Assembly (NCBI RefSeq): GCF_002854065.1
Contig: NZ_CP024147.1
Length of the DNA stretch: 64,000 nt
Source: Escherichia coli
Lineage (GTDB): Bacteria; Pseudomonadota; Gammaproteobacteria; Enterobacterales; Enterobacteriaceae
Direction: 5' to 3' (one strand)
Shown: in pieces, positions 37,786-55,425 of the stretch
Numbering within the stretch: position 1 is the first letter of the stretch
Layout of the letters: each line of letters starts with the position of its first letter
The notes under the pieces: model-generated
What the model was told of the DNA's origin: nothing
Database searches by the model: none
The model's input: only the letters and a program-made list of their open reading frames with translations
Program-made: the position numbers and the translations under genes

Positions 37786-37798
37786 CTGGAGAATGCGA

Positions 37799-39079
37799 AT
37801 GAGCAGCAATAAAGAGTTAATGCAGCGCCGCAGTCAGGCGATTCCCCGTGGCGTTGGGCAAATTCACCCCATTTTCGCTGATCGCGCGGAAAACTGCCGG
37901 GTGTGGGACGTTGAAGGCCGTGAGTATCTTGATTTCGCGGGCGGCATTGCGGTGCTCAATACCGGGCACCTGCATCCGAAAGTGGTTGCGGCAGTGGAAG
38001 CGCAGTTGAAAAAACTGTCGCACACCTGCTTCCAGGTGCTGGCCTACGAGCCGTATCTGGAGCTGTGCGAGATTATGAATCAGAAGGTGCCAGGCGATTT
38101 CGCCAAGAAAACGCTGCTGGTTACGACCGGTTCCGAAGCGGTGGAAAACGCGGTGAAAATCGCCCGCGCCGCCACCAAACGTAGCGGCACCATCGCTTTT
38201 AGCGGCGCGTATCACGGGCGCACGCATTACACGCTGGCGCTGACCGGCAAGGTGAATCCGTACTCTGCGGGCATGGGCCTGATGCCAGGGCACGTTTATC
38301 GCGCGCTTTATCCTTGCCCACTGCACGGCATCAGTGAAGATGATGCTATCGCCAGTATCCACCGAATTTTTAAAAATGATGCGGCGCCGGAAGATATTGC
38401 CGCCATCGTGATTGAGCCGGTTCAGGGCGAAGGCGGTTTCTACGCCGCTACGCCAGCTTTTATGCAGCGTTTACGCGCGCTGTGTGACGAGCACGGGATC
38501 ATGCTGATTGCCGATGAAGTGCAGAGCGGCGCGGGGCGTACCGGCACGCTGTTTGCGATGGAGCAAATGGGCGTGGCACCAGATCTCACCACCTTTGCGA
38601 AATCGATCGCAGGCGGTTTCCCGCTGGCGGGCGTCACCGGGCGCGCCGAAGTGATGGATGCCGTCGCACCGGGCGGGCTGGGCGGCACCTATGCCGGTAA
38701 CCCGATTGCCTGCGTGGCGGCGCTGGAAGTGTTGAAGGTGTTCGAGCAGGAAAATCTGCTGCAAAAAGCTAACGTTCTGGGGCAGAAGTTGAAAGACGGA
38801 TTGTTGGCGATCGCCGAAAAACACACTGAGATCGGCGACGTACGCGGCCTGGGGGCGATGATCGCCATCGAGCTGTTTGAAGATGGCGATCACAACAAGC
38901 CGGACGCCAAACTCACCGCCGAGATCGTGGCGCGCGCCCGCGATAAAGGTCTGATTCTTCTCTCGTGCGGCCCGTATTACAACGTGCTGCGCATCCTTGT
39001 ACCGCTCACCATTGAAGATGCTCAGATTCGTCAGGGTCTGGAGATCATCAGCCAGTGTTTTGCTGAGGCGAAGCAGTAG
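37799..39079 (+). CDS. gabT: 4-aminobutyrate aminotransferase (PLP)
   Basis: Start moved to MSSNKELMQRRSQAIPRGVGQ (426 aa); GGAG lies 8 nt upstream. Confidence 0.93.
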   Translation: MSSNKELMQRRSQAIPRGVGQIHPIFADRAENCRVWDVEGREYLDFAGGIAVLNTGHLHPKVVAAVEAQLKKLSHTCFQVLAYEPYLELCEIMNQKVPGDFAKKTLLVTTGSEAVENAVKIARAATKRSGTIAFSGAYHGRTHYTLALTGKVNPYSAGMGLMPGHVYRALYPCPLHGISEDDAIASIHRIFKNDAAPEDIAAIVIEPVQGEGGFYAATPAFMQRLRALCDEHGIMLIADEVQSGAGRTGTLFAMEQMGVAPDLTTFAKSIAGGFPLAGVTGRAEVMDAVAPGGLGGTYAGNPIACVAALEVLKVFEQENLLQKANVLGQKLKDGLLAIAEKHTEIGDVRGLGAMIAIELFEDGDHNKPDAKLTAEIVARARDKGLILLSCGPYYNVLRILVPLTIEDAQIRQGLEIISQCFAEAKQ

Positions 39080-39084
39080 CACCG

Positions 39085-39352
39085 CCCCCATGCCGGAGGC
39101 GACGCTGCGCGTCTTGTCCGGCCTACGAGAGTGTAGGTCGGATAAGGCGTTTACGCCGCATCCGACAATCGGCGCACCCTGCCGGAGGCGATGCTTACGC
39201 GTCTTGTCCGGCCTACGGAAATGTAGATCGGATAAGGCGTTTACGCCGCATCCGACATTCGGCGCATCCATGCCGGAGGCGACGCTGCGCGTCTTGTCCG
39301 GCCTACGAGAGTGTAGGTCGGATAAGGCGTTTACGCCGCATCCTACAATCTG
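39085..39352. repeat. Three tandem REP/BIME units (about 90-bp period)
   Basis: gccggaggcgacgctgcgcgtcttgtccggcctac...taggtcggataaggcgtttacgccgcatccgaca occurs three times with small differences. Confidence 0.85.
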
Positions 39353-39496
39353 TACGTGAACAGGAAGAAATCTATGTTGGCCGGGTAAGGCGGAGCCGCT
39401 CTCCGGCAAAAAGAATCAATAACAATTATACGCGTGACCCGACGCGGGAAATGTCGGGGCGCTCTCCCAAGTGACACACTTTCGAGAGGATTCAGG

Positions 39497-40897
39497 ATGG
39501 GGCAATCATCGCAACCACATGAGTTAGGCGGCGGGCTGAAGTCACGCCATGTCACCATGTTGTCTATTGCCGGTGTTATCGGCGCAAGTCTGTTTGTCGG
39601 TTCCAGCGTCGCCATCGCCGAAGCGGGCCCGGCGGTATTACTGGCCTATCTGTTCGCCGGGCTACTGGTGGTTATGATTATGCGGATGTTGGCGGAAATG
39701 GCGGTTGCCACGCCCGATACCGGTTCGTTTTCCACCTATGCCGATAAAGCTATTGGTCGTTGGGCGGGTTATACCATCGGCTGGTTGTACTGGTGGTTTT
39801 GGGTACTGGTTATCCCGCTGGAAGCCAACATCGCCGCCATGATCCTGCACTCGTGGGTTCCAGGCATTCCCATCTGGTTATTTTCCCTCGTCATTACCCT
39901 CGCCTTAACTGGCAGTAATTTATTAAGCGTTAAAAACTACGGCGAATTTGAGTTCTGGCTGGCGCTGTGCAAAGTCATCGCTATCCTGGCCTTTATTTTC
40001 CTTGGTGCAGTCGCAATTAGCGGTTTTTACCCGTATGCCGACGTGAGCGGTATTTCAAGATTGTGGGATAGCGGCGGCTTTATGCCCAACGGCTTCGGCG
40101 CGGTATTAAGCGCGATGTTGATCACCATGTTCTCGTTTATGGGCGCAGAAATTGTCACCATTGCCGCCGCGGAATCCGACACGCCGGAAAAACATATTGT
40201 CCGCGCCACCAACTCGGTTATCTGGCGTATTTCTATCTTCTATTTATGCTCTATTTTTGTCGTCGTGGCGTTAATACCGTGGAATATGCCGGGGCTGAAA
40301 GCCGTTGGTTCTTATCGCTCGGTTCTGGAATTGCTCAATATTCCCCATGCGAAATTAATCATGGACTGCGTGATATTACTTTCCGTAACCAGTTGCCTGA
40401 ACTCGGCGCTGTATACCGCTTCCAGGATGCTCTACTCCTTAAGCCGTCGCGGTGATGCGCCCGCGGTAATGGGTAAAATCAACCGCAGTAAAACCCCGTA
40501 CGTGGCGGTGTTACTCTCCACCGGCGCGGCATTTTTAACGGTGGTGGTGAACTATTACGCACCTGCGAAAGTGTTTAAATTCCTGATAGACAGCTCCGGC
40601 GCTATCGCCCTGCTGGTTTATCTGGTAATTGCCGTTTCACAGTTGCGGATGCGTAAAATCTTGCTCGCGGAAGGAAGCGAAATCCGCCTGCGGATGTGGC
40701 TTTATCCCTGGCTCACCTGGCTGGTGATTGGCTTTATTACCTTTGTGTTGGTGGTCATGCTATTCCGCCCGGCGCAACAGTTAGAAGTGATTTCCACCGG
40801 CTTATTAGCAATAGGGATAATCTGTACCGTGCCGATTATGGCGCGCTGGAAAAAACTGGTATTGTGGCAAAAAACACCCGTTCATAATACGCGCTGA
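39497..40897 (+). CDS. gabP: GABA permease (APC family)
   Basis: Start moved to MGQSSQPHELGGGLKSRHVTMLSIAGVIGASLFVGSS (466 aa). Confidence 0.9.
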   Translation: MGQSSQPHELGGGLKSRHVTMLSIAGVIGASLFVGSSVAIAEAGPAVLLAYLFAGLLVVMIMRMLAEMAVATPDTGSFSTYADKAIGRWAGYTIGWLYWWFWVLVIPLEANIAAMILHSWVPGIPIWLFSLVITLALTGSNLLSVKNYGEFEFWLALCKVIAILAFIFLGAVAISGFYPYADVSGISRLWDSGGFMPNGFGAVLSAMLITMFSFMGAEIVTIAAAESDTPEKHIVRATNSVIWRISIFYLCSIFVVVALIPWNMPGLKAVGSYRSVLELLNIPHAKLIMDCVILLSVTSCLNSALYTASRMLYSLSRRGDAPAVMGKINRSKTPYVAVLLSTGAAFLTVVVNYYAPAKVFKFLIDSSGAIALLVYLVIAVSQLRMRKILLAEGSEIRLRMWLYPWLTWLVIGFITFVLVVMLFRPAQQLEVISTGLLAIGIICTVPIMARWKKLVLWQKTPVHNTR

Positions 40898-54339: not shown

Positions 54340-55332
54340 ATGCGACATAGCGTACTTTTTGCGACAGCGTTTGCCACGCTTATCTCTACACAAACTTTTG
54401 CTGCCGATCTGCCGGGCAAAGGCATTACTGTTAATCCAGTTCAAAGCACCATCACCGAAGAAACCTTCCAGACACTGCTGGTCAGTCGTGCGCTGGAGAA
54501 ATTAGGTTATACCGTCAATAAACCCAGCGAAGTGGATTACAACGTTGGCTACACCTCGCTTGCTTCCGGCGATGCAACCTTCACCGCCGTGAACTGGACG
54601 CCACTGCATGACAACATGTACGAAGCTGCCGGTGGCGATAAGAAATTTTATCGTGAAGGGGTATTTGTTAACGGCGCGGCACAGGGTTACCTGATCGATA
54701 AGAAAACCGCCGACCAGTACAAAATCACCAACATCGCACAACTAAAAGATCCGAAGATCGCCAAACTGTTCGATACCAACGGCGACGGTAAAGCGGATTT
54801 GACTGGCTGTAACCCTGGCTGGGGCTGCGAAGGTGCGATCAACCACCAGCTTGCCGCGTATGAACTGACCAATACCGTGACGCATAATCAGGGGAACTAC
54901 GCGGCGATGATGGCTGACACCATCAGTCGTTACAAAGAGGGCAAACCGGTGTTTTACTACACCTGGACGCCGTACTGGGTGAGTAATGAGCTGAAGCCAG
55001 GGAAAGATGTGGTCTGGTTGCAGGTGCCGTTCTCTGCACTGCCGGGCGATAAAAATGCCGATACCAAACTGCCGAATGGCGCGAATTACGGCTTCCCGGT
55101 CAGCACCATGCATATCGTTGCCAATAAAGCCTGGGCCGAGAAAAACCCGGCAGCAGCGAAACTGTTTGCCATTATGCAGTTGCCAGTGGCAGATATTAAC
55201 GCCCAGAACGCCATTATGCATGACGGCAAAGCCTCAGAAGGCGATATTCAGGGCCACGTTGATGGCTGGATCAAAGCCCACCAGCAACAGTTCGATGGCT
55301 GGGTGAATGAGGCGTTGGCAGCGCAGAAGTAA
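54340..55332 (+). CDS. proX: Glycine betaine/proline ABC transporter, periplasmic binding protein
   Basis: Start moved to [21 protein letters not shown] (signal peptide), 330 aa. Confidence 0.93.
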
Positions 55333-55340
55333 TTTTTATT

Positions 55341-55425
<85 letters not shown>

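Follow-up and report, generated by a model that had tools for sequence, protein, structure and literature searches.

Three tandem BIME-2 units between gabT and gabP of Escherichia coli: a rare allele of a familiar element at a known site

The repeat that occupies the gap between gabT and gabP in this Escherichia coli strain is, with a confidence close to certainty, a non-coding BIME-2, composed of three tandem copies of a Z2 REP, a short linker and a Y REP, and followed by a solitary degenerate REP. It lies in the glaH(csiD)-lhgO-gabDTP operon; both the type of element and its location are already known, the three-unit allele is a rare one, and the two long open reading frames (ORFs) that run through it are artefacts rather than genes. 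We further hold it reasonably probable that the BIME-2 array in this untranslated gap acts on the operon, protecting the gabT mRNA and attenuating gabP.

Composition of the array and its family assignment

The array was examined within a stretch of 64,000 nucleotides (hereafter, the window), in which Tandem Repeats Finder detected a single array scoring at least 80, at positions 39083-39350 (period 90, 3.0 copies, 88% matches, score 439). The three units start at 39083, 39173 and 39263, as determined by a repeat search; unit 3 is 97% identical to unit 1, and unit 2 shows an ungapped identity of 77% because it harbors a pair of indels (-1/+1). An initial annotation of this DNA had described three near-identical palindromic units of about 90 bp at 39085-39352. 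The 90-bp tandem triplet is indeed there, though each unit turned out to contain two opposed REP palindromes, and the interval stops just short of a seventh, degenerate REP. The same annotation named gabT and gabP as the flanking genes, and both assignments were borne out by equivalog matches in NCBIfam. The gap between them measures 417 bp, with 12 nt separating the gabT stop codon from the first stem of the array and 150 nt separating the end of the array from the gabP start. The features of the locus are as follows:

37799-39079, plus strand: gabT coding sequence, 4-aminobutyrate aminotransferase (NCBIfam NF005985, 911 bits against a cut-off of 713)
38471-39409, minus strand: spurious ORF of 312 aa, antisense to the 3' end of gabT and running through the array
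38997-39359, plus strand: spurious ORF of 120 aa, starting out of frame inside the 3' end of gabT and running through the array
39080-39091, plus strand: 12-nt spacer CACCGCCCCCAT from the gabT stop to the first REP stem
39092-39126, minus strand: Z2-type REP 1, GTAG foot in minus-strand orientation (...CCGGCCTAC as read on the plus strand); predicted RNA hairpin of -20.3 kcal/mol
39127-39132: S linker GAGAGT, 6 nt, from Z2 REP 1 to Y REP 1
39133-39166, plus strand: Y-type REP 1, GTAG foot in plus-strand orientation, AA/GC internal mismatch (2x2); predicted hairpin of -17.4 kcal/mol
Directly 5' of Z2 REP 2: 14-nt linker AATCGGCGCACCCT
39181-39216, minus strand: Z2-type REP 2, 36 nt, loop CTTACG
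39223-39256, plus strand: Y-type REP 2, foot GTAGAT; predicted hairpin of -15.3 kcal/mol
39272-39306, minus strand: Z2-type REP 3, identical to Z2 REP 1
39313-39346, plus strand: Y-type REP 3; predicted hairpin of -11.8 kcal/mol
39376-39408, plus strand: seventh REP, solitary, degenerate and Y-like, with the foot GTTG in place of GTAG; predicted hairpin of -15.4 kcal/mol (repeat search)
39409-39496, plus strand: gabP leader
39497-40897, plus strand: gabP coding sequence, GABA permease (NCBIfam NF007566, 1060 bits against a cut-off of 871, residues 1-466 of 466)

The six palindromes of the array carry the hallmarks of REPs. Each forms a predicted hairpin (34-36 nt, -11.8 to -20.3 kcal/mol), and each carries, 5' of its stem foot, the GTAG tetranucleotide described for these elements (PMC3333891), on the plus strand in the three Y REPs and on the minus strand in the three Z2 REPs. 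Their stems hold internal mismatches, which in the Y REPs take the form of a 2x2 internal loop with AA opposite GC, the same pair of the Y stem that was mutated in PMC3333891. When the canonical Y-REP pattern was searched for with up to three mismatches, three matches were obtained, all of them in the array, compared with an expectation of 0.00 from shuffled sequences. The array is also wholly intergenic, and a search with it cross-matched E. coli genomes at a median of 4 places each, as is characteristic of extragenic, dispersed and multi-copy REPs.

A BIME-2 is defined in PMC3333891 as z2 and y REPs in inverted orientation, separated by a short linker and repeated in tandem, the copies of a locus being well conserved and their number differing among strains, and every sequence-level feature of this definition is present at the gabT-gabP array. 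The layout, Z2 on the minus strand, 6 nt, and Y on the plus strand, occurs three times over; the short Z2-to-Y linkers read, in order, GAGAGT, GGAAAT and GAGAGT, and the longer Y-to-Z2 linkers measure 14-15 nt. Locus-specific stem variants are common to all units, and the number of units, three here, is 1, 2, 3, 4 or about 16 elsewhere. Y REP 3 is distinguished by a G-to-T change (CATCCTAC) that weakens its outer stem.

Rfam holds no REP family as such, and contains instead naRNA4 (RF02564), which is modelled on a Y-linker-Z2 unit of the REP325 array. Two segments of the gabT-gabP array exceeded its gathering score of 59.5 bits, the better one comprising Y REP 1 and Z2 REP 2 (39136-39213, 77.7 bits) and the other Y REP 2 and Z2 REP 3 (39226-39303, 61.9 bits), and both span model positions 1-77 of 77. 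We based the Z2 identity on this full-length alignment to the Z2 half of naRNA4, as well as on likeness to a canonical Z2 at 55386-55422. Taken with the alternating Y and Z2 elements, the GTAG feet, the short linkers and a tandem copy number that varies among strains, these matches uphold the REP/BIME identity proposed at the outset. As to other REPs in the 64-kb window, the canonical Z2 belongs to the only such pair, a Y+Z2 BIME at 55338-55422 with a 14-nt linker, which scores 76.4 bits against naRNA4 and sits just past an ORF ending at 55332.

We next considered the RNA that the gap would encode. The transcript segment 39060-39440 (381 nt) is predicted to fold with -181.5 kcal/mol, compared with -141.6 +/- 5.4 kcal/mol for shuffled sequences (z = -7.5). 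Among 32 distinct units from 12 genomes the REP stems at this site are almost invariant: variable columns number 8 of 46 in the stems versus 23 of 35 in the loops and linkers (Fisher p = 2e-5). An intrinsic (Rho-independent) terminator was ruled out, as no plus-strand hairpin followed by a T-run occurs within 38900-39600, and a search of the same interval for a sigma-70-like promoter found none.

The genes and sequences on either side call for a few remarks. Residues 3-428 of the listed gabT product align to positions 1-426 of the NF005985 profile. The ORF list starts gabT at the ATG at 37793 (MRMSSNK...), while this alignment and the PGAP annotation of related genomes, in which gabT is 1281 nt long, point to 37799 and a protein of 426 aa; the stop codon is TAG (39077-39079). 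The spacer CACCGCCCCCAT is also found in strains TB06051, PE164 and CUWW06, and the seventh REP in all REP-bearing alleles examined. The last ~70 nt of the gabP leader (from ACGCGTG, ~39430, to 39496) are near-invariant in all alleles and species examined, including the non-REP allele described below. A CUCUC...GAGAG pairing in the leader overlaps the Shine-Dalgarno region, with a predicted fold that is not significant (z = -1.7).

Open reading frames that cross the array

The ORF of 120 aa on the plus strand and that of 312 aa on the minus strand are both present at the places and lengths first reported. The former had been said to contain one peptide three times; two of the copies are in fact exact, and the other has an E-to-K substitution. 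Both ORFs had been called spurious, and this judgement is confirmed.

Were the 120-aa ORF, or its 312-aa antisense counterpart, to encode a real repeat protein, an open frame with a 21-residue motif repeated three times would be what one expects to see, and the chance that it does so is, in our estimation, next to nil. The frame begins within gabT in another reading frame, and it does not persist among relatives. Unit lengths in other strains are 88, 89, 90 or 91 nt, and the LRVLSGLRECRSDKAFTPHPT peptide therefore moves to the CASCPAYESVGRIRRLRRIR frame or ends, as it does in Res13, 100181, PapM-32-1 and EC1515, so that the 120-aa frame is switched or broken in four of the eight REP-bearing strains; the 312-aa ORF is broken up in the same four. 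The K-12 equivalent of the 120-aa ORF spans 74 aa from stop to stop, the non-REP allele has none, and the entire array is missing from 1304 of 5426 genomes. Even within the present array, unit 2 is out of frame with units 1 and 3 between its two indels. Most or all of the array can be read without a stop in two plus frames (134 and 135 aa, stop to stop) and in one minus frame, a pattern that speaks for composition rather than coding: the array has 0 or 1 stop in three of its six frames, and it is because a GC-rich repeat free of stops in three frames has a 90-nt period divisible by three that long ORFs arise. The array of MOD1-EC7003 (95-bp period, 1.49 kb) contains no ORF of at least 100 aa. 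PGAP annotates no coding sequence in the gabT-gabP gap of strains with 1, 2, 3 or 4 units, NCBIfam has no family for either product, and neither product has an exact match in a collection of 15 billion proteins.

Pfam returned sub-threshold matches only. The translated REP-derived peptide (38997-39356) matched 2_5_RNA_ligase2 with E = 2.2e-5 and 25 bits against a cut-off of 27, which would count in favor of a protein; we attribute this near-threshold match to chance or to low complexity in a REP translation, one possible cause being that read-through translations of REPs are included in that family's alignment. The candidate protein-coding gene is refuted by the comparative data, as neither its frame nor its peptide is conserved among relatives. 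In terms of housekeeping, two large false ORFs are thereby dismissed and the repeat is correctly labelled as a BIME-2.

Copy number and alleles across strains

The initial annotation had recommended comparing the copy number of the unit across strains, and this comparison showed that it does vary, between 1 and 4 in E. coli and up to about 16 in Escherichia sp. MOD1-EC7003. The following alleles were recorded:

REP-bearing allele: 4056 of 5426 complete E. coli genomes
Non-REP allele (unrelated sequence, strongly structured, core multi-copy): 1304 of 5426 (24%)
One unit, in a 237-bp gap: K-12 and the majority of the REP-bearing genomes that were sampled
Two, three or four units: individual E. 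coli strains
At least two units, by the gab-type Y-to-Z2 junction: 73 of 5426 E. coli genomes (1.3%)
Two units: E. albertii
One unit: Pseudocitrobacter vendiensis
Z2 alone, its Y lost by deletion: a divergent 'E. coli'
15.7 units: Escherichia sp. MOD1-EC7003

Genomes with at least two units were counted using a junction-specific query, since the BLAST summary joins pieces that reuse a single subject unit. With a tandem-repeat query, genomes with one unit accordingly show ~100% coverage and a mean identity depressed to ~96-97%; because of this, the nearest genomes were missed by whole-array BLAST and were found by a separate search of the flanks.

The gabT-gabP BIME of K-12 MG1655 and most E. 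coli occupies the same site and shares with the array of the window the 3' tail, the solitary REP, the gabP leader and the Z2 and Y variants. Unlike the window, with three pairs in a 417-bp gap, K-12 has one pair in a gap of 237 bp, and its S linker and Y foot read GGGGATCCAG, where the window has GAGAGT followed by GTAG.

The nearest genomes were CUWW06 (100.0% identity over 5080 flanking bases) and 100416 (99.9-100.0% over 6001), each of which has a single unit carrying the T of CATCCTAC, as in unit 3 here. Their difference of 180 bp from the window is the expected product of recombination between units 1 and 3, and suggests a recent deletion or expansion by this route. With flanks identical and unit number different, the array appears to have changed length very recently, and copy number at this site is very unstable. 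An alternative for the single units of CUWW06 and 100416 is collapse of the repeat during assembly.

Several individual alleles are of interest in themselves. The MOD1-EC7003 array (1229-2718 of the extracted locus) consists of 95-bp units over 1.49 kb, with ~31 REPs and a short linker of 11 nt instead of 6, which makes it longer than REP325, whose 12 hairpins reportedly place it among the longest in K-12. In MS 69-1 (636-898 of the extracted locus) and MOD1-EC7003 (1229-1260) the last Y is fused to the seventh REP (GGTCGGGTAAGGCGGAGCCGC...); this fusion deletes ~60 bp, indicating that recombination between REPs also removes unique spacer. In Pseudocitrobacter, P. faecalis has the non-REP allele and P. 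vendiensis the one-unit REP allele, with gaps almost identical to those of the E. coli alleles, which suggests either that the gab region was transferred horizontally or that the assemblies are assigned to the wrong taxon.

In the non-REP allele a sequence of 310 bp stands in place of the array (E. coli ws5-3, 1301-1610 of the extracted locus). Its GC-rich palindromic core (CCCCTCGCCCCTCTGGGGAGAGGG...) is multi-copy, occurring at a median of 3 places per genome, and the repeat may resemble the boxC family. It parallels the array in occupying the same gap, in being dispersed and multi-copy, and in its strong predicted RNA structure (z = -7.0); unlike the array, it is of unrelated sequence, has no REP motifs and contains a weak plus-strand hairpin with a T-run. 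As this allele is folded too, both alleles place a structured element between gabT and gabP.

Predicted effect on gab expression and competing readings

The reading that we prefer combines the BIME-2 identity with an effect on expression. On this reading, the array would be non-coding repetitive DNA that grows and shrinks through recombination between its own copies and is probably part of the operon's transcript. The six or seven stable hairpins would then block 3'-to-5' exonucleases and so protect the upstream gabD-gabT message; they would also act as a partial attenuator of transcription into gabP, with Rho as one contributor given that the hairpins lack a following U-tract, and the outcome would be more gabT than gabP mRNA. 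We infer these effects on RNA stability, attenuation and translation by analogy with other REP systems.

One such system is REP325 of K-12, the source of naRNA1-6, in which six Y-Z2 pairs lie between yjdM and yjdN of the yjdMN operon (Harris et al., bioRxiv 2026, 10.64898/2026.03.23.713779). As in REP325, the gab array consists of alternating Y and Z2 REPs in tandem pairs between same-strand genes of one operon, its Y-linker-Z2 segments fit RF02564 end to end above the gathering score, and its hairpins are not followed by a U-tract; by analogy a role as attenuator and stabiliser might be expected. It differs from REP325 in having three pairs instead of six, in its linkers, and in its stem variants, GTCGGAT...ATCCGAC (Y) and GGAGG...TTGTCC (Z2). 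Deletion of REP325 raised expression of the downstream gene ~8-10-fold and lowered that of the upstream gene, in a manner partly sensitive to bicyclomycin; the array protected the upstream message and did not compact the nucleoid, and its attenuation was partly Rho-dependent, only for the full array (10.64898/2026.03.23.713779). The same study reported a median log-transformed upstream/downstream expression ratio of 0.96 for tandem gene pairs separated by REPs versus -0.09 for controls, found REP effects to be context-dependent, with 2-4 hairpins showing no detectable Rho dependence, and observed that the half-lives of REP-terminal genes are not longer genome-wide. The view that REPs at Rho-dependent 3' ends protect against exonucleases was summarised by Dar and Sorek (PMC6061677). 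That article also cites malE-malF and other intercistronic REPs (Newbury 1987; Khemici and Carpousis 2004), which similarly place hairpins between the cistrons of an operon and were proposed to form an exonuclease barrier that gives higher upstream than downstream expression; such a barrier is putative for gab, which is a different operon with a different REP composition.

Expression data from K-12, where the gap holds a single unit, are compatible with this preferred reading. RNA-seq baseMean values are 85.7 for glaH, 276.7 for lhgD, 647.6 for gabD, 794.7 for gabT and 89.6 for gabP, placing gabT ~9-fold above gabP (10.64898/2026.03.23.713779). This drop plausibly fits gabT protection and gabP attenuation; it does not prove their cause, and could also stem from intrinsic instability of the gabP mRNA or from other causes. 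Among the papers searched, none linked gabDTP with REPs, and, as regards published 3'-end data, neither gabT nor gabP appears in the supplements of Adams 2021.

A translational component is conceivable as well. As the first stem begins 12 nt past the gabT stop codon, it may also impede terminating ribosomes; stem-loops within 15 nt of a stop codon are described as triggering tmRNA action (PMC5009743). By analogy, a hairpin so close to the stop would tend to lower GabT synthesis, opposing the stabilisation. The primary source for this tmRNA effect is reportedly Liang, Rudd and Deutscher (Mol Cell 2015).

Two other accounts of the array have to be weighed against an effect on gab expression. The array could be a selfish or neutral repeat in a gap that tolerates insertions, its copy number drifting through RecA-mediated recombination, replication slippage or TnpA-REP with no meaningful consequence for gab expression. 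Much of the comparative evidence is what such drift would produce: the replacement of the array by unrelated sequence in 1304 of 5426 genomes, by which it is dispensable, the different unit numbers among genomes with identical flanks, the range from 1 to ~16 units across Escherichia, and the fusion of terminal REPs by deletion. BIMEs are, moreover, cleaved and recombined in vitro by TnpA-REP (PMC3333891), and the effects reported for REPs are highly variable. Neutrality fits less well with stems that are conserved while loops and linkers vary, although this conservation could equally result from concerted evolution or recognition by the transposase; nor does it readily account for the strong structure of the non-REP allele (z = -7.0), for the upstream-biased expression of REP-separated pairs genome-wide, or for a K-12 gabT/gabP ratio of ~9. 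We regard the neutral account as rather unlikely, though deserving of serious consideration.

More doubtful still, in our judgement, is a role at the level of DNA, whereby the array would be bound and cleaved by gyrase and thus absorb the supercoiling that transcription generates, or would give rise to RNAs of the naRNA4 type with a part, through HU binding, in organising the nucleoid. The BIME-2 architecture and the full-length naRNA4 matches above the gathering score are in keeping with it, as are an HU-naRNA4 Kd of ~32 nM and the cleavage of BIME-2 by gyrase (Espeli and Boccard 1997, as cited in PMC4550694). Against it, neither deletion nor overexpression of REP325 affected nucleoid volume, and neither HU-dependent contacts between REPs nor a stable ternary complex were found (10.64898/2026.03.23.713779), in a study whose authors include one from the original naRNA4 work; the functional claim attached to the naRNA4 family, that of a discrete HU-binding RNA, is disputed.

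Beyond the preferred reading of gabT protection and gabP attenuation lies a more ambitious version, that the number of BIME-2 units sets the GabT:GabP ratio quantitatively and could be selected, which we think unlikely. Escherichia lineages provide a series of alleles at one site (no REP, 1, 2, 3, 4 and ~16 units), and unit number changes even between near-identical genomes; on this version the first hairpin, being close to the gabT stop, would also contribute through translation. If true, such a dial would set the balance between GABA uptake and catabolism. The dependence of attenuation and mRNA protection on REP dose was left open by the recent REP325 work, and with an unusually broad natural span of 0 to ~16 units in one well-studied stress and nitrogen operon, the gabT-gabP gap offers a convenient site at which to test it.
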